Below, one piece after another: positions 6,623 to 51,688 of a stretch of DNA of 64,000 nucleotides. The stretch comes from an uncultured Bacilli bacterium (GTDB lineage Bacteria; Bacillota_I; Bacilli_A; RF39; UBA660), in NCBI GenBank assembly GCA_944350485.1, contig CALVPE010000074.1, positions 13,989-77,988 of the forward strand, in the 5' to 3' direction. A program made the position numbers and the translations under genes. The notes beneath the pieces are model-generated. The model worked only from the letters and a program-made list of their open reading frames with translations, made no database searches and was not told the origin of the DNA. Every line of letters starts with the position of its first letter. Within the stretch, counting starts at the first letter, position 1.

Positions 6623-7080
6623 TATTTTTCCTGTTCTTCTATATACTTTACTAATTTTTGTAAACTAATATTTCCACTTGTTGCTAAATAATAACTATTG
6701 CTCCAAAAATGTTTACCCCATAACTTATCTGCTAAATATTGTTTATATTTATTTCTTATATATTTACTTGTTGACCCTTTTATAGTATTTATATATTTTT
6801 TTATGTCTAATGTAGGTTTTGTTTTTATCATTATATGTATATGGTCTTTATCAACTTCTTGTTCTATAACTTCAACATCAAAATTTTTTGATAAATCAAT
6901 TATTTTTGTTTTTAAATCATCTACAAGTTTATTATTATCAAATATTTTTTTTCTATATTTTACTACTAATATCAAATGATATATTAGTAAAAAAACAGAA
7001 TTACAACTTTTATCTAATTTATTCATATTTATTTTTTTTGTTATACTAATATTATAATAACCAAAAATATAAAAAGTCAA
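6622..7080 (-). CDS. tnpA: IS200-like Y1 (HuH) transposase TnpA
   Basis: HIHIMI (HuH motif) and SNSYYLATSGN. Size 152 aa. Confidence 0.85.
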   Translation of the reverse strand: MTFYIFGYYNISITKKINMNKLDKSCNSVFLLIYHLILVVKYRKKIFDNNKLVDDLKTKIIDLSKNFDVEVIEQEVDKDHIHIMIKTKPTLDIKKYINTIKGSTSKYIRNKYKQYLADKLWGKHFWSNSYYLATSGNISLQKLVKYIEEQEK

Positions 7081-7263
7081 GAAAATATTTTATTTTTAGC
7101 AATTTATCCCCCACTTAAAAGCAGGGGAATTCTTGCTATCTTACATTTAAATTTTTAATACTTTTATAAACATATTCTAAAAAGCTTATAAGCAATAAAA
7201 TTGGAATAACAAATAATTGCAATATAAATTCCAATATATCTATTATATAATGTATTATCTTTT

Positions 7264-7758
7264 TTAAATCTTCTTGCATATATTAAAATTATTAGTAATA
7301 ATTATTTCATCTTGTTTATTATATTTAAAATAATCTGATAAAATTTTTAAAGCTTGTTTACTATTAAAAACTAAACCTTGTTCTTCATCACAAGACAAAC
7401 CTACTAAAATACATCCCCTTGAATCACATCTCCAACAGTTGCCTTTTTTATCTTTAAAATATCTAACACTATTTCCGGCATGTATTCTAATATATTTTCT
7501 TATATTTTTAACATTATGATTATCATCATATTCTATACAGGCATCTAAACCATTATTTTCAACTTTTACACATTCACCAAATGTATAGCTTTTAAAATAT
7601 TTTCCAATATATTTACCTTCTGGTATTGATGAAATATTATTTTGATTATTTTTATAAGGTAATTCCAATGTAAAAATATTTACTTTTTTTTCACCTAAAT
7701 TGTTTATTTTTCCAATTATAAAATTATTATTAATTATATATCTATCTATTTTTATCAT
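7264..7758 (-). CDS. YkuD/L,D-transpeptidase-fold-like protein (possible cell-wall-active enzyme)
   Basis: RIHAGN...(about 20 aa)...SRGCILVG reproduces the L,D-transpeptidase His ... S-x-G-C-[IV] catalytic arrangement. Own sigma70-like promoter at about 7775-7815. Confidence 0.35.
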   Translation of the reverse strand: MIKIDRYIINNNFIIGKINNLGEKKVNIFTLELPYKNNQNNISSIPEGKYIGKYFKSYTFGECVKVENNGLDACIEYDDNHNVKNIRKYIRIHAGNSVRYFKDKKGNCWRCDSRGCILVGLSCDEEQGLVFNSKQALKILSDYFKYNKQDEIIITNNFNICKKI

Positions 7759-7837
7759 AACAAAAACAAAATTAGTATAATAATATATATTATATTATAA
7801 TTTTATTAAGTCAATATTTATAGGTAAAATATTTTAC

Positions 7838-8314
7838 CTATTTTTTACCTTTATTTACCTTTTCAAGATTTTTTAAATATAAATATTTTTGTTTTCTTAA
7901 TTCTTTTTGTTTTTTTAAAATATTTTTTTCATATTCAGTTTTTTCCCTTTTTATTTTAGGCTTATGAATTAAATTTTTATTTTTTGTATTAATAGTTATT
8001 TTTTTTCCAGAAAGTTCCTGATATTTATTAATCATAAATTCATCAATAGTCAATATATTATCTTGTAAAAAATCTTTAATATTATTTGTATTATTAATTA
8101 TTTCTGGTTCTTTTAAAAAACCATCATGTATTTTTCTATGACAACACATACAAACTGGCAATATATTTTTTTCATCCCAGCGATATAATAAATTTGCTCT
8201 TCTAATTATATGATGACCTACAACATTTTTTGTAGTTCCACAATAATAACATCGTTTTTTACTAGCTCTTTCTTGTATTATTTGATCTAATTTTTTCATT
8301 AAATTTTTATTCAT
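7838..8314 (-). CDS. HNH endonuclease
   Basis: CYYCG...VGHHIIRR...CMCCHRKIH (Cys4 plus HNH). Confidence 0.8.
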   Translation of the reverse strand: MNKNLMKKLDQIIQERASKKRCYYCGTTKNVVGHHIIRRANLLYRWDEKNILPVCMCCHRKIHDGFLKEPEIINNTNNIKDFLQDNILTIDEFMINKYQELSGKKITINTKNKNLIHKPKIKREKTEYEKNILKKQKELRKQKYLYLKNLEKVNKGKK

Positions 8315-8321
8315 AATATTC

Positions 8322-10511
8322 CTATTTTTTGCATTTCCATGAAAATAAAGCTTTTCCAGTAATAATATTTCCGGTAACTCTATTTATTAAACAATCTTTA
8401 AATCCTTCTTCTTTTGCTAATATATAATCTTCTGCTTTTCCAAATTTATCATAAGTTTTTGTACAGTCAACAAAAATTGGTTTTTTACCTTCTTGAAATC
8501 TTACAAGTCTTCCAACAGATTGTATTAACAAAGACAAAGACATCATTTGTCTAGCATTTATTATACAATCTAAACTAGGGCAATCAAAACCAATATTTAA
8601 AGCATTAACATTAACTAATATTTGTTTATTATTATTTTTAAATTTTTCAATTATTTCTTGTCTTTGTTTTTTAGGTGTATCTCCATAAATTTCCATAACT
8701 TCGTAACTCTTTTTTCTTAAAGTATCACATATTATATTAGCTTGTTGTTTACAACTAGTTATTATAAGAATCTTATTTTTTATAGGAAAAAATTCTTCAA
8801 CTGCTTTTATTGTATTATCTATTCTATCTTGTCTAGTAGTATATTTAACTATACTTTCTTCCGTATAATCACATCCTGTTGAATTTACTTGTAATTGTGA
8901 CAAATCAAAACCATTACTATAATCTATATATTCTGGTTTCATAATATAACCAGCTTCCATTAAATCCTTTAATTCCATTTTATAAACAATAGATCCAAAG
9001 AAAAATGGATGAATACGATTTAACATCATTAGAGAACCTGTATAGTATTTTTCACCACCATCATAACAAAATCTATTTACAAGACGATACGGGGTAGCGG
9101 AAAAAGAAAGTACTCGACTACATTTTATTTCTCCAAAAAATTTTGAATACATACCATTTGTATTTTGAGGATTTACTGTATGACAATTACCAGAAATAAA
9201 AGTCAATCCATCACTTCTAACTACTATTTTATGATTTGGGACTTCTACACAATAAACGTAATTATTATAATCTTGGATTATTTGTTTATTCGCTGCCTGC
9301 AAACTTCTATAATCGCTATCAAAAAAAATTACTCTATATAAAGTTTTTCTATTGTCGCCTCTTTCTCTTTGCTCCATTACTGTTCTATATCCAGCTTGTG
9401 TAGCTATTGCATTAACAAAATCTACATTATCTTTTATAATAGAAGAATAACTTTTTGGCATTTCATTTTTTCTAGTTCCATCCCATAAACATATTTCTTC
9501 TATAAAATCTCTTGCTCTATCATACCCCATATTTATATTAAAACATTTAGATAAATATTTTGCTCGTTTATTTAAAAAATCATTACCTAATAAAATATGC
9601 CATGCTTCATATCCTTCTCTTGTTATATTTAATTGTTTAATATTTGTCATGTTTTTTGTTAATAATTTCCATCTATCTTTTTTTCTTTGTTTTTTTAAAG
9701 AAATACTATAACGACCAACATCTTTTTTATTACGGTTAAAACTAACTGAACCATCAGCTTGTAAAGCAACCAAGACTCTTTCAAAATCTGTAAGTAAAAC
9801 ATTATTTCCTGTCCCCTTTCCTGCACAAATAAGTTGATTTTTACTAGAAGCACTATGTCCGACTGTTAAATCTTTTACTAAACAATTATTTATTGTATAT
9901 TTGTCCGAACTAATTTTTCTTCTATAAACTTGATTATGATTTGGCGTCATTAAGCAACCTCTGATATTTTTATAATTAGAGAAATTTATTTTTATCATTT
10001 CACCATTATGCTTCCTTTTTATGTATCTCAATGGTTTCACAAATTCTATTTTACCATCATCATATTGCGCAACTAATTCTGTTTGGTCTAAATCTTTAAA
10101 TTTTTTAAAACCTCTATCAGTTAATATTTCTACACCACCATCAAAACACTCATCTATTATGCAATTTTTTACATCTTTAAATAATTCTGGATGTTTATAT
10201 GCAGATTGTATAGTAGAAAATATAACATTTTTATCTGTTTCTTTTCTGTCTTTTCCAGCAGAAAAAACACTAGCTTCATAACCATAACTTTCATATTTAG
10301 ATAAATTTTGTTCTAATATTTCTTGTGATGGTTGAAATACTATTGTTTTATCTTGTAATTCTTTTGCTATATTTGCTATTACTATTGACTTTCCAAAAGC
10401 TGTACATGCTTGCATTATAATTGGTTTTTTAGAATTTTGTAAATAGTATAAGCCAGTTTTAACAGCAACTTTTTGATATTCTCTTAATTGTATCATTTTT
10501 TTTCTTTCCAA
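8322..10511 (-). CDS. SF2 DNA helicase (DECH box) interrupted by an intein
   Basis: Walker A QACTAFGKS, motif II IIDE|...|CHT, motif III LSFSATP. A 321-aa insertion lies exactly inside the DECH box. Confidence 0.75.
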   Translation of the reverse strand: MERKKMIQLREYQKVAVKTGLYYLQNSKKPIIMQACTAFGKSIVIANIAKELQDKTIVFQPSQEILEQNLSKYESYGYEASVFSAGKDRKETDKNVIFSTIQSAYKHPELFKDVKNCIIDECFDGGVEILTDRGFKKFKDLDQTELVAQYDDGKIEFVKPLRYIKRKHNGEMIKINFSNYKNIRGCLMTPNHNQVYRRKISSDKYTINNCLVKDLTVGHSASSKNQLICAGKGTGNNVLLTDFERVLVALQADGSVSFNRNKKDVGRYSISLKKQRKKDRWKLLTKNMTNIKQLNITREGYEAWHILLGNDFLNKRAKYLSKCFNINMGYDRARDFIEEICLWDGTRKNEMPKSYSSIIKDNVDFVNAIATQAGYRTVMEQRERGDNRKTLYRVIFFDSDYRSLQAANKQIIQDYNNYVYCVEVPNHKIVVRSDGLTFISGNCHTVNPQNTNGMYSKFFGEIKCSRVLSFSATPYRLVNRFCYDGGEKYYTGSLMMLNRIHPFFFGSIVYKMELKDLMEAGYIMKPEYIDYSNGFDLSQLQVNSTGCDYTEESIVKYTTRQDRIDNTIKAVEEFFPIKNKILIITSCKQQANIICDTLRKKSYEVMEIYGDTPKKQRQEIIEKFKNNNKQILVNVNALNIGFDCPSLDCIINARQMMSLSLLIQSVGRLVRFQEGKKPIFVDCTKTYDKFGKAEDYILAKEEGFKDCLINRVTGNIITGKALFSWKCKK
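9186..10148 (-). other. Intein (321 aa) with LAGLIDADG homing-endonuclease domain, inserted in helicase motif II
   Basis: Begins at C of CFDGGVEILTDRG and ends ...FISGN followed by +1 Cys of CHTV. Block B has T..H in CLMTPNHNQ, the LAGLIDADG-like motif is VLVALQADGSVS, and block F is YVYCVEVPNHK. Excision restores IIDECHTV. The penultimate residue is Gly rather than His. Confidence 0.7.
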
Positions 10512-10954
10512 ATTTTTAATATTTTTAAATTTCTTTCCCTATATCTTGAATGTTGATTTATATTTTTCTTATTAAATTTTTTTAAATATTGTTTTTTAAA
10601 TTTATTAAAAGCTTCATTAAAATATTTATTTTTATTTGTTTTAAAGTCAAAAGTTTCTTCAAATTTTATTCCAAGTTTTTTATATTTATATTTTTTATAA
10701 TAAAAAGCATCTAAATTTTTTTTATATTCTTTATTTTCTTCTCTCCATTTTTTTGCATATTTAGATTGACATTCTTTACATTTTGTTCTATGGCCCACTT
10801 CTATTTTTATTTTTCCATTTTCTGTTATAAATTTTTTTGTTTCTTTATGAAATTCACTTAATCTTTTCCATTGTTTACAAACTCTACATTGTTGTAAAAG
10901 AATACCATGTTCTCTTTTTCTAAAAGAGTTTTTATATTCATAAATATTTTCCAT
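10493..10954 (-). CDS. hypothetical basic protein with two CxxC pairs (zinc-ribbon-like)
   Basis: CRVCKQ...CKECQ. Overlaps the helicase start. Confidence 0.4.
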   Translation of the reverse strand: MENIYEYKNSFRKREHGILLQQCRVCKQWKRLSEFHKETKKFITENGKIKIEVGHRTKCKECQSKYAKKWREENKEYKKNLDAFYYKKYKYKKLGIKFEETFDFKTNKNKYFNEAFNKFKKQYLKKFNKKNINQHSRYRERNLKILKIWKEKK

Positions 10955-11008
10955 AATAAAAATTAATATTTTTTACAATAATAAAATATTATATTTAAAA
11001 ATCAAGTG

Positions 11009-11224
11009 TTAATTAAAATAATTTTTTAAAGCTTCTTTATCTTGATTAGATTTTTTTAGAGCATTATCATATTTAATGATACATTCTCCATAAGTGTTAT
11101 TTTCACAATCAACATATATTTTTTGCAATCTTATATAATTTAAGGGAATATCATTATGTACAAAATTATGTTTACAAGATACTAATAAAATTAAAATAAA
11201 TAAAAATAAAATATTTTTAAACAT
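11009..11224 (-). CDS. putative o-spanin (outer-membrane lipoprotein)
   Basis: Signal peptide with lipobox LLVSC. Small mature domain. Overlaps the preceding coiled-coil type II membrane protein by 8 nt. Confidence 0.45.
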   Translation of the reverse strand: MFKNILFLFILILLVSCKHNFVHNDIPLNYIRLQKIYVDCENNTYGECIIKYDNALKKSNQDKEALKNYFN

Positions 11225-11525
11225 CTTCTTTTAATATTTTTAATAAATCTTCACTAACTTTTTGATTAACACAAAAATTTTTATCATTTTTTTCTAATTT
11301 ATTAAGCTTATTTTTTAATACATTATATCTATTAATATAATATTTATTTTCTTCTTCACTTTTATTAAAATCTTCTTTTAATATATTATTTTTTTCTTGA
11401 ATATATAATAAATCTTCTTGTAAATTTCTATTAATATATTGTTCCATTTTTATTTTTTCTTTTAACAAAGATATATAAATAATTAAACATAATATAATAC
11501 TTATAAACAATAATTTTTTTATCAT
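11217..11525 (-). CDS. putative i-spanin (N-terminal TM plus periplasmic coiled coil)
   Basis: N-terminal TM LLFISIILCLIIYISLL followed by a charged heptad-like region. Paired with the lipoprotein gene downstream. Confidence 0.45.
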   Translation of the reverse strand: MIKKLLFISIILCLIIYISLLKEKIKMEQYINRNLQEDLLYIQEKNNILKEDFNKSEEENKYYINRYNVLKNKLNKLEKNDKNFCVNQKVSEDLLKILKEDV

Positions 11526-11526
11526 T

Positions 11527-11949
11527 TTATATAAAAAATTTTTGAATAATAATCATTAACACTGCACCACCAGCACCTGATAAAAAATTATAAAATATTT
11601 TTATATTTTTTTTAGTAGTAGTAATATCTTTTACAAAATCTTTAATTTCATTTATAGCCCCCTTTAATTCCTTAATTTCATTAATTAAACCTTTTGAATA
11701 ACAGCCATCTCCTTTTAAAAACATATTTATTTGTTCTAAATTTTTTTCTATTTGTTCTATTTTATGTTTTTGTATATTTTGTTCATCTTCTATTTCTTTT
11801 ATATTTTCATATATTTTAGATTTGCAATCCTTATTTATCATATTTTTATTTAACATATCAGCTTGTCTCTCCAAAATTTCATTGTGGTTATTGGTTGTTT
11901 TTACAAATGTTTCTACAACTTGTTTTAAATTATCTAATGTTTCCTTCAT
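11527..11949 (-). CDS. hypothetical coiled-coil protein with C-terminal TM segment
   Basis: C-terminal FLSGAGGAVLMIIIQKFFI. Confidence 0.35.
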   Translation of the reverse strand: MKETLDNLKQVVETFVKTTNNHNEILERQADMLNKNMINKDCKSKIYENIKEIEDEQNIQKHKIEQIEKNLEQINMFLKGDGCYSKGLINEIKELKGAINEIKDFVKDITTTKKNIKIFYNFLSGAGGAVLMIIIQKFFI

Positions 11950-12635
11950 TTTCTAAATTTCTTTATTTTTAAAATTAATAAATAAATACAAGGGAATATA
12001 TATTCTGACTTATATTCATATCCTTTAATTTGATTTAAAACATATCTTAAACTTCTTAAACAATTGAATCTAAAATAAAATGTTCTTTTTTGTCTAGCAT
12101 GTTGTGATAAAAGATTTTTTTCCCAATCTCCATTTAAATTTTTAAAATTAAATCCAGTATCTATAATTAAATATTTTTCTTTTAAATAATTTAGAGTTTT
12201 ATCAGTAAAAGGTATTTTTTGTAAAGTTTTAGCTTCATATCTCATCTGATATATATTTTTATTTATAATTAAACCTGCAGAACTATATGATAGACCAAAT
12301 ATTGATAATATAAATTGTTTTATTTTTTTAGGTTTATAAAAAATAATAAGTACATTATTATTATTTATTTCATCGCTTTTTATATAAGAAAATAATTTAC
12401 AAAATAAAAAATAAAATAAAAATAAAGATTGTATTATATAATATATAGAATAATTAATATTAAATATATAATTTAAAAAAGAAAAAAATATATCTATTAT
12501 AAAAAATATATTTAATGCTCTTAATATAAAATATTTATACTCTAATTTTAAATAATTATCAATTAGAATATATAATAAAATTATATAATATAAATTTTCT
12601 ATAATAAAATTAAACATTACTTCTATTGTCATCAT
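11946..12635 (-). CDS. hypothetical polytopic membrane protein
   Basis: Several hydrophobic segments in the N-terminal half. Confidence 0.35.
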   Translation of the reverse strand: MMTIEVMFNFIIENLYYIILLYILIDNYLKLEYKYFILRALNIFFIIDIFFSFLNYIFNINYSIYYIIQSLFLFYFLFCKLFSYIKSDEINNNNVLIIFYKPKKIKQFILSIFGLSYSSAGLIINKNIYQMRYEAKTLQKIPFTDKTLNYLKEKYLIIDTGFNFKNLNGDWEKNLLSQHARQKRTFYFRFNCLRSLRYVLNQIKGYEYKSEYIFPCIYLLILKIKKFRK

Positions 12636-21532: not shown

Positions 21533-22153
21533 ATGACAATATTAATAAAAAATAGATTTAATAATTTATCAATGGATAATTTAATAATTAATGATTATAA
21601 TAAAAATTTAATTACATATTTAAAAGATTATAAAAAAAATATTGAAGAAAAAATAAATAATTACGAAAATATTATTTTAACTGGAAGTGTTGGAAGTGGA
21701 AAAACTTTTATTATGAGAAGTTTTTTTAATGATATCCAAAAAATTAAAATTAAAAGACAAAAAAGTTTTTATTATAATCAAATAGAAGAAGAAGATTATA
21801 TTTCTTCTATGTATGTAAATATGTATGATTTAATAAATGAATTAAGAAAAGAATATAAAGGTGAACATGTTGATAGTTTATTATTTACATGTGATTTGTT
21901 ATTTATTGATGAAATAGGTATACAATTTTGTACAGATGCAGAAAGACAAATACTTTTTAAATTAATAAATTATAGATATGAAAATTTTAAACCAATATTT
22001 TTAATTTCAAATCATCCTTTAAGGTCCACCAATGAAATTAAAGGTCTTTATTATATTTTAGGTGATAGAATAATGGATAGAATTTGTGATTGTAATTGTA
22101 AAGTATTTTGTTTTAATAATATAGAATCAATGAGAAAAAAATGTTTGAAATAA
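21533..22153 (+). CDS. DnaC/IstB-like helicase loader ATPase
   Basis: Walker A GSVGSGKT and Walker B LLFIDEIG. Confidence 0.7.
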   Translation: MTILIKNRFNNLSMDNLIINDYNKNLITYLKDYKKNIEEKINNYENIILTGSVGSGKTFIMRSFFNDIQKIKIKRQKSFYYNQIEEEDYISSMYVNMYDLINELRKEYKGEHVDSLLFTCDLLFIDEIGIQFCTDAERQILFKLINYRYENFKPIFLISNHPLRSTNEIKGLYYILGDRIMDRICDCNCKVFCFNNIESMRKKCLK

Positions 22154-24180
22154 AATTATATGATATTGAATGTGAACAAGTATTATTAGGATGTTTAATA
22201 TTAAATTCTGAAACATATTTTAAAATAAATTCAATAATAAAAAGTGAGTATTTTTTTGAAAGTGCTCATAAAGATATTTTTATTTTACTAAAAAATTTTT
22301 ATGAAAATGATAAGGTACAAGATTTAAAATCATTATCAGGCGAAATAAAAAATATTTTAAGAAAACATCATTATACAGATGATTATTTAAAATGCTTATT
22401 AAATATGGGAGCAGGAATAATTGATGTAGAAAGTTATTGTAATATAATTAAAAATTTTTATTTAAAAAGACAATTGAAAGATTTAGAAGAAAAAATTGAA
22501 TTAGAAATTAAAAAAAATACTAAAGCAGAAGATATATATGATAAAATAAAAAACAATTTAGAAAATATAGGAGAACAATCAAAAGAAGAACAATATACTT
22601 TTGATAATGCTATGGATATATGTGCTAAAAGAATATTGGATATAGAAAATACTATTAATAATAAAAATGAACCTGATAATATTATAAAAACTAATATTAT
22701 AGATTTTGATAGAAAGTTAGGTGGAATTTTTAGAAAAAAATTATTTGTTTTAGCTGGAAGGAGTTCGTCGGGAAAAGCGTTACCATTAGATACTAAAATA
22801 TTAACTAATAAAGGATGGATAAAAAATAAAAATATTAAAATAGGTGATAAAGTTATTGATCCATTTGGTAAAGAAGTTGTAGTTAATGGTGTTTTTCCAC
22901 AAGGAAGAAGAAGATGTTATAAAATATTTTTTGAAGATAGAATTATAGAAGCGGATAAAAATCATTTATGGGAGATATTTTTTGAAGATGAAATAGAACC
23001 AAAAATATTAAGCACTAAACAAATATATAAAATATTAAAAGATAAAAAAAATAATAAAAAGTTATGTATAAGGCTTTTTTGTGGAAAATATGGGCTTAAT
23101 AATAATAAAAGTATTTTATTTAAAAAATATGAAGCTAGAAAAAATTTTTTATTTAATTATCTTAATAAAAGAAAATATGAAATAAAAAGTTATAAAAAAT
23201 CTTTAATATTGCAACAATTAGCTTTTAGTTTAGGCATGAAGTGCCATATTATTTTTGATAAAATAAATAAAATATATAAAATAGATATTTATAAAAATAT
23301 TTCTAAAAAATTATATATTAATAAAATAGAAAAATCAAATTTTAAACATACACAATGTATTAGTGTTGATAGTAATGAACATCTCTATGTAATTCAAGAC
23401 TATATTGTTACTCATAATACTACACTTTCTTTACAAATTGCATTAAATGTAGCTAAACAAAATAAAAATGTTTTATTTTTTTCACAAGAAATGTGTTCTG
23501 AAGAGCAGGGAGATAAAATATTATCTAATGTTGCACAAATTAATTCTTCAAATATAAGAAAATCAGATGTTACTTATGAACAAATACAAAAAATGAAAAA
23601 TAATATGGAAGAAATAAATAAATTACCATTATATTTTAATGAAAAGTTAGGTATTAGTGGTGATTATGTAAGAAATGTTATTAAAAATTTTGAAAAAAAA
23701 GTCGGTAAAATTGATTTAGTTATTATAGATCACTTGCAAATAATGAGAACAGAAGATAATCAAAATAATAGGGTATTAGCTCTTGATAAATTATCTATGG
23801 ATTGTAAAAATATAGCAAAAGAATTTGATTGTGGCATGATATTGTTAAGTCAATTATCAAGAAAAACAGAAGAAAGAGATGATCCACGACCACAATTATC
23901 CGATTTAAGAGAAAGTGGTGGTATTGAACAAAATGCGGATGTTGTAGTTTTTATTTATCGGGAAGCTTATTATACAGAAAGAAAACTAAATGGGTTATTA
24001 GAAACAGATCCAAGATTCACTAGTTTATCTAATCAATTGAAAACTCAAAAAAATCAAGCAGATTTAATAATACAAAAAGATAGGGGGGGAAATTTAGGAA
24101 ATATAAAATTATATTTTGTCCCTGAATTTTCTTATTTTTCCGATATATATACTAAATATCTAGAAGATGCAAAAAAATAA
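22141..24180 (+). CDS. dnaB: Replicative DNA helicase DnaB interrupted by an intein in the P-loop
   Basis: N-terminal ECEQVLLGCLILNSE. P-loop LAGRSSSGK|...|TTLSLQIALNVA split by a 214-aa insert. C-terminal ...IIDHLQIM...ESGGIEQNADVVVFIYRE. Confidence 0.85.
   Translation: MFEIKLYDIECEQVLLGCLILNSETYFKINSIIKSEYFFESAHKDIFILLKNFYENDKVQDLKSLSGEIKNILRKHHYTDDYLKCLLNMGAGIIDVESYCNIIKNFYLKRQLKDLEEKIELEIKKNTKAEDIYDKIKNNLENIGEQSKEEQYTFDNAMDICAKRILDIENTINNKNEPDNIIKTNIIDFDRKLGGIFRKKLFVLAGRSSSGKALPLDTKILTNKGWIKNKNIKIGDKVIDPFGKEVVVNGVFPQGRRRCYKIFFEDRIIEADKNHLWEIFFEDEIEPKILSTKQIYKILKDKKNNKKLCIRLFCGKYGLNNNKSILFKKYEARKNFLFNYLNKRKYEIKSYKKSLILQQLAFSLGMKCHIIFDKINKIYKIDIYKNISKKLYINKIEKSNFKHTQCISVDSNEHLYVIQDYIVTHNTTLSLQIALNVAKQNKNVLFFSQEMCSEEQGDKILSNVAQINSSNIRKSDVTYEQIQKMKNNMEEINKLPLYFNEKLGISGDYVRNVIKNFEKKVGKIDLVIIDHLQIMRTEDNQNNRVLALDKLSMDCKNIAKEFDCGMILLSQLSRKTEERDDPRPQLSDLRESGGIEQNADVVVFIYREAYYTERKLNGLLETDPRFTSLSNQLKTQKNQADLIIQKDRGGNLGNIKLYFVPEFSYFSDIYTKYLEDAKK
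22777..23418 (+). other. Intein (214 aa) in the DnaB Walker A motif. It has a non-nucleophilic Ala1, ends ...VTHN, and the +1 residue is Thr
   Basis: Starts ALPLDTKILTNKGW (block A), ends ...DYIVTHN|TT. Excision gives GRSSSGKTTLSLQ. Ala at position 1 plus Cys in block F (TQCISVD) suggests a class 2/3-type intein. Its size leaves room for only a reduced endonuclease domain. Confidence 0.75.
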
Positions 24181-48894: not shown

Positions 48895-49122
48895 TTATTT
48901 TTTACTTATTATTAAAACAGAAATTATAAAAAATATAAACATTAGAGAATATTTTAAAATATCAAAATATGTACTTGCATTTAATAAAAAAAATGGTGTA
49001 TAAATCATACATGCAACACAAATAATAATACATATATTGCTAATATTTTCTAATATTTTTATTATAATATTTTTTAAAAAAAGATAAAATTTATTTAAAA
49101 TCATTGATATTTTTTTAAACAT
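48895..49122 (-). CDS. small hydrophobic protein between terminase and portal
   Basis: Two TM-like segments. Confidence 0.3.
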   Translation of the reverse strand: MFKKISMILNKFYLFLKNIIIKILENISNICIIICVACMIYTPFFLLNASTYFDILKYSLMFIFFIISVLIISKK

Positions 49123-51688
49123 AACTTATATTTATTCTCCTTTGTTTAGTTTTATTAAAATAATTTCTAGCCCAATTAATTACTTGTGATAAAGAATCAA
49201 CTGCATCATCATGTACACTATCATTTTTGCTAGGAAATACATTTAATTCTCTCTCTATTTCTTTTATAACATATATTTGTTTTTTGTCAAGTCTAGTAAT
49301 TTTATTATATTCTTTTGGAAAAAATACTCTACCATTATTTATTTCAAGGGAACATGATTTTGCTCTATCTTCTTTTGATAATTTTGGAGAAAAACAAATA
49401 ACAATTTTATTTTTTCTAGGATCTTTTTTTTCTAATAAACCACCATATATTAATATTTCAAGTTCATTAATAATTTCATAACCACTACTTTTTTCTTCAA
49501 CTATTATAAAGTCTGGTTGATATTCAATATACCAATCAATAACTCTTCTAACAAACAATGGTGTTTTTTCTTGTGTTAAACTAGCTTCTAAAAGATATGA
49601 TTGTAATTCTTTTCTTTTTGTAATATTATTTGTATAAGTATTAAATCCCCATAATTGCATTGATTGATAATCATTTTCTCCATTAGATGAATCTATTGAA
49701 ATAACTCTTTTTTCAAAAATAATATCTTTTATATTATCATTAGTATATTTATTAATACAATTTATATTAAATATTTTTGTATCTTCTTCTTCACATTTTT
49801 GAAACATTTGCCATTGAAAATCAATATCATTGTTTATTAAGTTTCTATGAAGTTCAAATCTATTATCATCAAATTTATCTGGAAATATAAAATCTCCATT
49901 TTTGACAAACCATTTTCTATAAGGACTAATAAAATATTTTCCAGATAATAATTTATTATTTTTTGCATCATAATATTCTTCTACTTGATTTTCTATTTTT
50001 GCAGGTATTTCTATATGTTTCCATTTGGAACTGTTAGGAAGTCTTAATAAATATCCAGTTGTGTCATTTTCTGCTATTCTTTGCATACAAATGATTAATG
50101 GAGCTTCGGAACCTATTATACCCCTATCCCTTGTAATACAACCACTTACAATTTCATTCATTTTTGTTAAATAAGTATCTTTTTCTGTTTTAAATCTAGT
50201 ATAATCATTTGGATCATCAAAAATTGTAAAATCAGAATCGGTACCTGTTATATTACCTTGCATTGTTTTTATTGTAATACTACCACCACCTTCTATTTGT
50301 TCTCCATAATTAAATTTTTCTAAGAAAAATACTTCTTCTGTATTTTTTTGATTTTTATCTATTTTAACTTGTGGAAATAATTGTTGATAATAATCAGAAT
50401 TTAATATTTCTTTAATATGTCTAACATATTTATTTCTAACGGTATCAGCACCGGAAATAATTAAAAATCTAGTATGTGGAAAAAATCCAATATAAAGACA
50501 TACAAAAGATATTAAACTATTGGTATTATGGCAAACTGTATAATTATCAAGTAAATATAAATGATTACCATCTAATTCAAAACCATAATATTTATCATAT
50601 CCCATGCTTTCAATATTAAATTTTTGTAAAGATAAATATATAGGATTATCTTTAAAATGATTTTTTTTATTTTTTAATGATATTTTTTCTATATTACCAT
50701 GAATATATATTTTATAAAATTGTTTATTTTTAATAAATTTTGTATACTTTTTTGTATAAAATCCTAAACTTCTTGATAAATCAATTATAAAATTTGTTTT
50801 TTCTAAATTATTGCAAATTATTTCAATTTCATTATTTGATTTTATAAATCCCCTTCCATCAACTATTCCGGATAATAGTTTTAATCTTATATCTTCATTA
50901 TTAAAAATATAATCATTTAAAAATTCTTTATTTTTTTCTATTTTATCTAATATTTTAAATTTCTTATTATTAAAAAATTTATTATTTAGTTTATTTAATT
51001 CTATTGTATGTAATGTTTTATTTTTATTTGATAAATATAAACCAACAAAATAAGGATTTATATCTACTTTTTTATATTTATAAAGTATCTTATTTTTTAC
51101 CATTCTATGATTTTTTTTAAAATCTTCATCTTGTTTTAAATAGTCATCAACAGTGATTTTAATAAAATTTTTATCATTTATATTATATAAATATAAAATA
51201 TGTTCTTTATTACAAGTAAATTGTGTATCATCATCCATAGTAATTTTATACATATTAGAATAACTACTTCCTAATGATATGACATTTCTAGGAGTACTAT
51301 CATCTCCCATTATTTTATCTCCTATTACTATGTCTTCAACTTTTTTTAAAGTTCCATCATACATTCTTATTAATGTACCTTTACCATGACATTTACCATG
51401 TCCAGGTGGAATATTAATAATTAAAAATTTATTTCTTTTTTCTAAAATTTCTTTTAAAAAATCAAAATAATACTTAAAATACCAATTAAATTTAAAATTT
51501 ACTTGCGGTTCACATATTCTACAACATATTTCATGAAACAGAACCATATTATTTATTAACCAGTAATAATCTGGATAAAAATTACCATTTTCATCAACTT
51601 CTAATGTTATATTATCAGTTATTCTTTTAGAAAAAACTGTTTTATAATATTCTAATGTATTTTTTTTATTTTCTAACTCAGAAGTCAT
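49115..51688 (-). CDS. terminase large subunit interrupted by an intein in the ATPase P-loop
   Basis: NIPPGHGK|...|TNSLISF reconstitutes the Walker A motif PPGHGKT after removal of a 289-aa insert. The C-terminal nuclease-like region includes FIIVEEKSSG and DDAVDSLSQ. Confidence 0.8.
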   Translation of the reverse strand: MTSELENKKNTLEYYKTVFSKRITDNITLEVDENGNFYPDYYWLINNMVLFHEICCRICEPQVNFKFNWYFKYYFDFLKEILEKRNKFLIINIPPGHGKCHGKGTLIRMYDGTLKKVEDIVIGDKIMGDDSTPRNVISLGSSYSNMYKITMDDDTQFTCNKEHILYLYNINDKNFIKITVDDYLKQDEDFKKNHRMVKNKILYKYKKVDINPYFVGLYLSNKNKTLHTIELNKLNNKFFNNKKFKILDKIEKNKEFLNDYIFNNEDIRLKLLSGIVDGRGFIKSNNEIEIICNNLEKTNFIIDLSRSLGFYTKKYTKFIKNKQFYKIYIHGNIEKISLKNKKNHFKDNPIYLSLQKFNIESMGYDKYYGFELDGNHLYLLDNYTVCHNTNSLISFVCLYIGFFPHTRFLIISGADTVRNKYVRHIKEILNSDYYQQLFPQVKIDKNQKNTEEVFFLEKFNYGEQIEGGGSITIKTMQGNITGTDSDFTIFDDPNDYTRFKTEKDTYLTKMNEIVSGCITRDRGIIGSEAPLIICMQRIAENDTTGYLLRLPNSSKWKHIEIPAKIENQVEEYYDAKNNKLLSGKYFISPYRKWFVKNGDFIFPDKFDDNRFELHRNLINNDIDFQWQMFQKCEEEDTKIFNINCINKYTNDNIKDIIFEKRVISIDSSNGENDYQSMQLWGFNTYTNNITKRKELQSYLLEASLTQEKTPLFVRRVIDWYIEYQPDFIIVEEKSSGYEIINELEILIYGGLLEKKDPRKNKIVICFSPKLSKEDRAKSCSLEINNGRVFFPKEYNKITRLDKKQIYVIKEIERELNVFPSKNDSVHDDAVDSLSQVINWARNYFNKTKQRRINISYV
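50525..51391 (-). other. Intein (289 aa) with LAGLIDADG homing-endonuclease domain in the terminase Walker A motif
   Basis: Cys1 at CHGKGTLIRMYDGTL (block A). Block B T..H in FTCNKEH. Two LAGLIDADG-like motifs (YFVGLYLSNKNK and LSGIVDGRGF). Block F YGFELDGNHLYLL. Terminal TVCHN with +1 Thr. Confidence 0.8.

Follow-up and report, generated by a model that had tools for sequence, protein, structure and literature searches.

Inteins and their surroundings were examined in a 64,000-nucleotide stretch of contig CALVPE010000074.1 (assembly GCA_944350485.1, positions 13,989 to 77,988 of the forward strand), hereinafter the window, which is a myovirus-like phage genome with genes for the major head protein, portal, TerL, tail sheath, tape measure and baseplate. 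The subject of this analysis is a gene in the window for a superfamily 2 (SF2) helicase whose DECH box (motif II) is split by a predicted intein of 321 amino acids (aa). An earlier note on this DNA, made from the sequence alone, placed a LAGLIDADG intein at 9186-10148, between the Glu and the Cys of the DECH box, without naming the strand. These coordinates proved exact, and the element lies on the minus strand, the translation of the plus strand over the same interval being riddled with stop codons. The features of the locus are as follows (a slash within a motif marks a splice junction, and a letter with a number, such as F:4, a position within an intein block).

8322..10511, minus strand: intein-containing precursor gene of a RadD-like SF2 (DExH) helicase, 729 aa, TTG start (open reading frame list; Pfam Helicase_C 1.9e-20, ResIII 6.9e-15)
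10149..10511, minus strand: N-extein, residues 1-121, ending in ...KNCIIDE and including motif I GKS (10386-10394); the Pfam ResIII and DEAD matches of the precursor end at residue 122
9186..10148, minus strand: intein, 321 aa, Cys1 to Asn321 (translation, homologs, and the DNA break relative to the intein-less contig L002)
9810..10148, minus strand: N-terminal half of the HINT domain, intein residues 1-113, with block A CFDGGVEILT and block B TPNH (9936-9947); beta-rich in the AlphaFold2 model, with a predicted local distance difference test score (pLDDT) of about 90; family invariants C1, T10 and H71
9315..9797, minus strand: two-motif LAGLIDADG homing endonuclease domain, residues 118-278, with motif 1 VLVALQADGS (9747-9776) and motif 2 IEEICLWDGT (9474-9503) (AlphaFold2 secondary structure, Foldseek, conservation)
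9186..9302, minus strand: C-terminal half of the HINT domain, residues 283-321, with block F YVYCVEVPNHKI (9225-9260), including Cys300 (F:4, 9249-9251), and block G FISGN, with Gly320-Asn321 at 9186-9191 (family conservation; block F aligns to block F of 6zgq)
9183..9185, minus strand: Cys+1, the C-extein nucleophile and the Cys of the DECH box (intein-less homologs are continuous through VDE/CH)
8322..9185, minus strand: C-extein, from CHTV... to the stop codon, with motif III SAT (9093-9101) and the Helicase_C domain (Pfam and translation)

The split helicase and its predicted spliced product

Residues 122-442 of the precursor (positions 10148 to 9186) have the sequence CFDGGVEILT...YVYCVEVPNHKIVVRSDGLTFISGN, after which comes CHTV; the reading frame is unbroken across 729 codons. 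The exact sequence of this protein, taken from either possible start, matched no entry on record. Deletion of these 321 residues in silico joins IIDE to CHTV, with SAT downstream, and yields a 408-aa helicase that is recognized over the full length of its domains: upon removal of the insert, the ResIII score rises from 55.8 to 74.1 bits and the coverage of the profile from positions 2-134 to 2-164 of 164, and the DEAD score rises from 27.8 to 46.5 bits. The motif set of the host helicase is complete, comprising GKS, DE/CH (the splice site), SAT and the Helicase_C domain. All the motifs quoted in the earlier note (TPNH, VLVALQADGS, YVYCVEVPNHK, the GN end and the downstream SAT) were found at the places that it gave.

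The spliced product matches the NCBIfam RadD model NF053632 with an E-value of 4.5e-68 and 230 bits, below the 720-bit cut-off for RadD equivalogs, and therefore, judging from this score, the host protein is described as RadD-like only, not as a RadD equivalog. The insert is not set apart by G+C content, which is 26.9% in the insert, 25.3% in the exteins and 22.3% in the window. A frameshift or an assembly artifact was rejected as the origin of the insertion, given that the frame is intact and that a second allele carries an intein with 97.8% identity.

Presence and absence of the intein among helicase homologs

A search with the spliced sequence retrieved 766 helicase homologs, the nearest of which are 407-416 aa long and continuous through VDE/CH. 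The closest intein-less helicases are 81% (P0007) and 63-64% (P0008 and P0009) identical to the spliced protein. At the DNA level, blastn against the intein-less contig L002 aligned window positions 8305-9185 (81.6% identity) and 10147-10945 (70.4%), with the homology interrupted exactly at 10147/10148 and 9185/9186, such that the 963-bp segment is missing to the base. The sequence of the intein-less site around the insertion point is ...TGTATAGTTGATGAA/TGCCATTCAATAAAT... (AAATATTGTATAGTTGATGAA/TGCCATTCAATAAATCCTAAA). The earlier note had named homologous helicases that carry the segment as a structural domain as evidence against an intein; the homologs precisely lack it, which favors an intein.

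The second intein-positive allele is a 728-aa protein (P0127) whose intein is 97.8% identical to the intein in the window and whose exteins are only 87.5% identical to those in the window, being closer to the intein-less P0007 (90.7%) than to the window exteins. Thus, the history of the intein is uncoupled from that of the host gene, the pattern that homing, or a gain and loss in recent times, would leave.

A more distant helicase homolog (P0058, 704 aa) contains an unrelated intein, CFVAGTTV...NILVHN/CHLL, at the identical DE/CH site, and therefore this site was invaded independently. The P0058 intein has a canonical HN end and matches Pfam PF07591 and PF14890.

Splicing domain and endonuclease domain

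The intein begins with Cys1, directly after IIDE, includes the block B motif TPNH at residues 68-71, and ends with ...FISGN/C, that is, with Asn321 followed by a +1 Cys. The penultimate residue is Gly320 instead of the canonical His, as had been read from the sequence in the earlier note. All the residues that are invariant in the lineage described below (C1, T10, H71, C300, G320, N321 and C+1) are present. At the positions that form the WCT signature of class 3 inteins, the window intein has Gln73 (B:12), Cys300 (F:4) and Ser319 (G:5), of which the Cys matches the signature and the Ser is a conservative replacement, and the Trp is not matched; the class 3 intein AceL NrdHF has Met-Cys-Thr at these positions.

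The AlphaFold2 model of the intein, built from a 7-sequence alignment, has a pLDDT of 83.4 and a predicted template modeling score of 0.86. Both termini are beta-rich, and the center (residues 121-276) consists of two alpha-beta-beta-alpha-beta-beta units, the first helices of which (121-132 and 209-223) terminate at D132-G133 and D223-G224, respectively. When the whole model was compared to the Protein Data Bank (PDB) with Foldseek, the matches were TliVMA (8e-15), PI-SceI, PI-PfuI and PI-TkoII, with E-values between 8e-15 and 1e-10 for TliVMA, PI-SceI and PI-PfuI; the central region alone matched I-DmoI (about 1e-4, with a template modeling (TM) score to the target of 0.55-0.60) and I-SceI. 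A single-sequence phmmer search of the PDB with the intein produced only spurious matches to PII proteins (E-value of 1.2), and the profile and the mini-intein profile were needed for this comparison. The LAGLIDADG assignment, to which the earlier note had come from the motifs, is thus supported by the predicted structure, including the two conserved D-G motifs, despite the lack of a match to the Pfam LAGLIDADG models. Among the 176 family members (see below), D132 is conserved in 161, D223 in 164 and K156 in 165. The retention of these residues is consistent with an active enzyme, and the predicted cleavage of the intein-less allele is indirectly supported by the higher identity between the two alleles in the intein (97.8%) than in the exteins (87.5%).

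A large lineage of inteins with Gly-Asn ends

When the insert alone was used as the query, homologs were detected with E-values from 1.7e-69 to 1e-7, well outside what chance would produce; these are 26-45% identical to the insert, are each bounded by C...GN/C, and reside in functionally unrelated proteins. The hosts include a thymidine-kinase-like protein (VIDE/C..GN/CQFL; host assigned by eye), another helicase, two AAA+ clamp-loader-like ATPases (IIDE/C..GN/CH), a YqaJ exonuclease, and a CHAP-domain protein in which the intein sits directly at the motif VPW/C..GN/CSGFV. A search of 1.84 billion representative sequences with the 7-sequence profile retrieved 15,265 proteins with E<=1e-3, including 1,834 with E<=1e-30, mostly over the full length.

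Inteins of this lineage were found by tblastn in 122 deposited phage genomes. Among the carriers are Staphylococcus phages of the Silviavirus type, with the inteins in the ribonucleotide reductase (RNR) alpha subunit and NAMPT; Tenacibaculum phage PTm1 (RNR beta); Salmonella phage Shivani and Shigella phage SHSML-45 (NrdA); Escherichia phages (DNA polymerase); Lak megaphages; and Mycobacterium phages Bigfoot and Turj99 (DNA primase/TOPRIM). The phoH gene is also among the hosts in isolated phages.

To quantify conservation, we used 175 inteins from the 150 best representatives and the six first matches, together with the window intein, that is, 176 sequences, a set that is biased toward the query profile. 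The counts are:

Cys1: 175/176
Thr/Ser at B:7: 175/176
His at B:10: 175/176
Cys at F:4: 176/176, no residue of the lineage being more conserved
Arg/Lys after block F (R311): 176/176
Thr/Ser at G:5: 132/176
Gly at G:6: 173/176
Asn at G:7: 174/176
+1 residue in the 175 database inteins: Cys 145, Ser 22, Thr 8

The invariant Cys at position 4 of block F had drawn no comment in the earlier note. By these comparisons, the lineage is large, mostly phage and metagenomic, and characterized by the signature C1...T-x-x-H...C(F:4)...(S/T)-G-N/C/S/T. The window intein belongs to it both by significant full-length homology and by the C1, TxxH, C(F:4) and (S/T)GN residues. The DE/CH site is occupied by 97 of the 175 database inteins, and 24 of the 150 host proteins bear two or three inteins of the same lineage (for example, three in P0216, a protein of 2223 aa).

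Within the lineage, with the same GN end and Cys at F:4, there is a sub-clade of inteins that start with Ala and occupy the RNR-beta site (..RDE/ALSGDHELLT...VTVTGN/CVHG; P0188, P0276, P0277, P0279 and P0283). P0188 (956 aa) contains two Ala1 inteins, at about 101-429 and 523-829. P0276, P0277 and P0279 are about 360 aa long and consist almost wholly of the intein, with exteins of just 10-20 aa; the contigs that encode P0276 and P0277 reach 111 and 345 kb, and P0276 has no Pfam match at all. Proteins of this type may represent orphan or fractured-gene arrangements.

The penultimate glycine and characterized relatives

In the earlier note, the GN end was considered a trait of a minority of inteins, in which Asn cyclization proceeds without the assisting His. 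The Gly is indeed present, and the view of it as a minority feature has to be refined: Gly occupies G:6 in 173 of the 176 inteins, so that the lack of the His is the normal state in the lineage, and the introduction of His is harmful in two characterized relatives (PMC5050341, PMC7891396). The Gly-Asn end is thus a near-invariant trait of the lineage rather than an individual loss or defect, and by analogy with these relatives, Asn cyclization in the lineage probably does not depend on a His at G:6. Functional inteins that lack the penultimate His have been documented previously (PMC5050341, PMC7891396, PMC4031507), and some inteins with another penultimate residue have been reported to splice better once His replaces the native residue (PMC5050341).

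The first of the two relatives is the intein of the RDF of mycobacteriophage Bethlehem, a metallophosphoesterase (gp51 in Kelley et al. 2016 mBio, PMC5050341; gp52 in AY500153), which is recovered as a lineage member by the A1 profile (E-value of 7e-21, 60 bits, positions 6-312). Splicing of this intein goes to completion, the endonuclease proved toxic in E. coli, and the G316H substitution slows splicing, with accumulation of the precursor (PMC5050341). It resembles the window intein in the presence of Cys1, block B ITANH, block F VWCLRVP (with Cys at F:4), a TGN end and residence in a phage gene, and likewise is full-length, at about 317 aa, with LAGLIDADG blocks according to Kelley et al. 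(PMC5050341). The differences are the phosphoesterase host, the insertion site (GNHD/C...TGN/S), with Ser rather than Cys at +1, the distant sequence, and the origin from a high-GC actinobacteriophage.

Of the solved structures, the second relative, the AceL NrdHF intein (6zgq), is nearest in sequence, with an E-value of 7.7e-10 in the search with the mini-intein profile, followed by Mja KlbA (1.6e-6) and Spl DnaX (0.0036); it is also the best mini-intein match by Foldseek. AceL NrdHF ends with T-G-N, and the G145H substitution abolishes its activity via a predicted clash with Arg69 (B:11) (PMC7891396), a residue that touches the carbonyl of the C-terminal scissile bond (Hoffmann et al. 2020, PMC7891396). 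The two inteins share similar block B motifs (SPNH(R)M in AceL, TPNH(N)Q here) and a Cys at F:4 followed by x-x-V-P; in both, the His residues that are usual at F:13 and G:6 are missing or can be dispensed with, and AceL NrdHF is probably of phage origin. In contrast, AceL NrdHF starts with Ala, splices by a proven class 3 mechanism, is naturally split, is accompanied by a free-standing GIY-YIG gene in place of the internal LAGLIDADG domain, and resides in RNR beta with Ser at +1; its compensating Arg at B:11 is replaced by Asn in the window intein. In the latter, the invariant Arg311 is a candidate for the residue that replaces the penultimate His.

Other characterized inteins are less similar. 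PI-SceI, PI-PfuI and TliVMA (1vde, 1dq3 and 7qsu) share with the window intein a HINT domain into which a two-motif LAGLIDADG endonuclease is inserted (TM scores of 0.55-0.67) and the class 1 nucleophiles Cys1, Asn and Cys+1, but are only 9-14% identical to it, have HN ends and typically Asp at F:4, and contain additional DNA-recognition regions, unlike the compact 321-aa intein described here. The canonical class 3 inteins of DnaB (MP-Be DnaB, Msm DnaBi1 and Mch DnaB1) have in common with it the Cys at F:4, a hydroxyl residue at G:5, the link to phages and the preference for helicase ATPase motifs, but lack a nucleophile at position 1, have Trp at B:12 and keep the penultimate His; no solved structure of a canonical class 3 DnaB intein as such was among the PDB profile matches at E<=1.

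Mechanism, splicing class and alternative explanations

The exact boundaries, the presence/absence polymorphism, the homology to other inteins, the predicted fold and the conservation of the catalytic residues all point to a bifunctional intein, combining a HINT domain with a two-motif LAGLIDADG endonuclease, at 9186-10148 (minus strand) in the DE/CH box of motif II of a phage RadD-like SF2 helicase, a reading to which we assign a probability of about 0.9. Under this scenario, after translation, the HINT domain would excise 321 residues: Cys1, aided by Thr68 and His71, would form a thioester at the Glu121-Cys122 bond of the precursor, the acyl group would be transferred to Cys+1, and cyclization of Asn321 would free the intein, after which an S-to-N shift would link Glu121 to Cys443, restoring the DECH box and producing an active 408-aa helicase. 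In a co-infection, the LAGLIDADG domain (with Asp132, Asp223 and Lys156) would cleave intein-less alleles at the coding sequence for ..VDE/CH.., and the repair of the cleaved allele would copy the intein in. Such homing would account for the patchy distribution of the intein among near-identical helicase genes. With Cys1 kept in 175 of the 176 family members, the class 1 order (Cys1, then Cys+1, then Asn) is the most likely one for the window intein, with Cys300 most likely filling the role that is usually played by Asp at F:4.

Several observations weigh against this interpretation or parts of it. The curated intein models score below their cut-offs (17.2 vs 35.8 bits for PF14890; 23.9 vs 24.5 bits for TIGR01445, the NCBIfam intein_Nterm model), which reflects a sensitivity limit of the models rather than a defining biological feature, and the Pfam LAGLIDADG_1, _2, _3 and Hom_end models do not match the intein even at E<=10. 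Endonuclease activity is predicted solely from the conserved residues. Position B:11 is Asn, whereas AceL NrdHF makes up for its lack of the His with an Arg there. Finally, the closest characterized HINT domain follows the class 3 pathway, which makes the first step, attack by Cys1 or by Cys300, uncertain.

The last point leads to an alternative course of splicing that we consider unlikely, namely, that the intein resembles class 3 inteins or functions as a relay, with Cys300, rather than Cys1, making the first or obligatory attack on the N-terminal junction. In this case, a branched thioester in block F would precede the transfer to Cys+1, and Cys1 would only assist, for example in a relay or as a redox or zinc switch. 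This possibility is in line with two positions of the WCT triplet, Cys at F:4 being found in all 176 sequences and Thr or Ser at G:5 in 132, and with AceL NrdHF, by sequence as well as by fold the nearest solved structure, which is of class 3 and has the F:4 Cys (C124) as its essential first nucleophile and branch point (PMC7891396). Furthermore, the nearest relatives of AceL in the set are Cys1 members at the same RNR-beta site (AceL Int-N is most similar to P0227, 41% identity, 1.7e-15), and the existence of the Ala1 sub-clade implies that the loss of Cys1 is tolerated within the lineage. However, class 3 is defined by the absence of Cys at position 1, together with Cys at F:4 (PMC7891396), whereas Cys1 is present in the window intein and in 175 of the 176 sequences, which is unexpected if it is dispensable, and B:12 is Gln in the window intein, not Trp. 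In addition, Kelley et al. place the His-less mycobacteriophage inteins, including the Cys1/GN intein of the Bethlehem RDF, with class 1 (PMC5050341), and Cys is the second most common residue at F:4 across inteins overall (PMC4031507).

The lineage, with AceL NrdHF and the Ala1 sub-clade in it, spans both Cys1 members and, by the definition of PMC7891396, class 3 members, with Cys at F:4 throughout. We tentatively raise the possibility, in our view a doubtful one, that the whole Cys1/Cys-F:4/(S/T)-Gly-Asn lineage requires the block F Cys as a nucleophile, be it relay or primary, and hence is intermediate between classes 1 and 3. If so, the Ala1 sub-clade (AceL NrdHF, P0188, P0276, P0277 and P0279) would represent an independent, divergent origin of class 3 from Cys1 ancestors, which would speak against the convergent origin of class 3 inteins from a protease-like ancestor that has been proposed (PMC7664689).

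Returning to the preferred reading of a functional intein, it appears highly improbable that the intein is instead decaying or splicing-defective, such that the loss of the His cripples Asn cyclization, the helicase is poorly made or absent, and the gene is turning into a pseudogene. Such decay would fit the reported improvement of certain non-His inteins upon His substitution (PMC5050341) and the low scores of the curated hidden Markov models; however, the 729-codon frame is intact, every lineage-invariant residue is present, Gly is the norm at this position, two relatives with GN ends splice efficiently and are both harmed by the change of this Gly to His, and there is another allele with a 97.8% identical intein. 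A dead intein was likewise rejected. The least plausible alternative, with next to no probability, is a lineage-specific accessory domain that is retained in the mature helicase, which has in its favor the weak curated-model scores and nothing further, and is refuted by the presence/absence data, the closest homologs being precisely without the segment, while the same module recurs in unrelated proteins, always bounded by C...GN/C/S/T, would part DE from CH in motif II, and has a fold that matches intein endonucleases.

Inteins in helicase ATPase motifs, phage LAGLIDADG inteins and functional inteins with a penultimate Gly are already documented. What is added here is the placement of this intein in a very large lineage, with Cys1, Cys at F:4 and the Gly-Asn end, which curated models recover poorly and which spans class 1-like and class 3 members. 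The evolution of class 3 splicing and the substitute for the penultimate His can conveniently be studied along the natural series that this lineage provides. For annotation, the helicase gene should be taken to encode two entities, a RadD-like enzyme of 408 aa and a mobile element of 321 aa. The 7-sequence profile finds over 15,000 representatives of the lineage, and yet its member in the window falls under the Pfam and NCBIfam intein cut-offs, so that automated annotation is likely to miss such inteins. For intein biology, a member with Cys+1 at the DECH site joins a lineage in which the penultimate Gly and the Cys of block F hardly vary. Compact GN inteins with a native Cys+1 junction and new LAGLIDADG specificities could also be of some value as tools for protein and genome engineering. 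The points on annotation, intein biology and tools will come as no surprise to specialists.

Phage context, other inteins and a neighboring gene

The phage is uncultivated and has a G+C content of 22%. Megablast of window positions 7000-12000 against 50,697 phage records gave no match, and the best identity in a tblastn search with the portal protein was just 33%; hence the phage has no close cultivated relative among the records searched. A second copy of the GN lineage was not found within the window with the A1 and A4 profiles, which gave a weak match (0.011) to an intein in DnaB. This and another intein lie in other genes of the window:

22777-23418, plus strand: intein in the Walker A motif (P-loop) of a DnaB-like helicase gene (22141-24180), 214 aa, GRSSSGK/ALPLDTKILT...YIVTHN/TTLSL
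50525-51391, minus strand: intein in the Walker A motif (P-loop) of the terminase large subunit (TerL) gene (49115-51688), 289 aa, PPGHGK/CHGKGTLIRM...NYTVCHN/TNSL

The DnaB intein, with Ala1, block B NHLW, block F QCISV and a THN/T end, displays the complete WCT signature of class 3. Its best PDB matches are gp41-1(WCT) (6riz, 7e-8) and the class 3 Msm DnaBi1 (6bs8, 3.5e-6); it also matches the class 3 Mch DnaB intein, and it has no Pfam intein match. The TerL intein matches Pfam Hom_end_hint (7.7e-18), contains the LAGLIDADG-like motif LLSGIVDGRGF and is of the canonical class 1 type, ending in HN. Thus, given the differences between the helicase, DnaB and TerL inteins, three inteins of three different types are present in the 64-kb window.

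Directly downstream of the RadD-like helicase gene, an open reading frame at 7838-8314 (minus strand) encodes a 158-aa protein with a CxxC...HH...CxxCH pattern and weak, sub-threshold Pfam matches to HNH (18.6 vs 21.4 bits) and NinG. This protein may be a free-standing HNH endonuclease encoded beside the intein-bearing gene.

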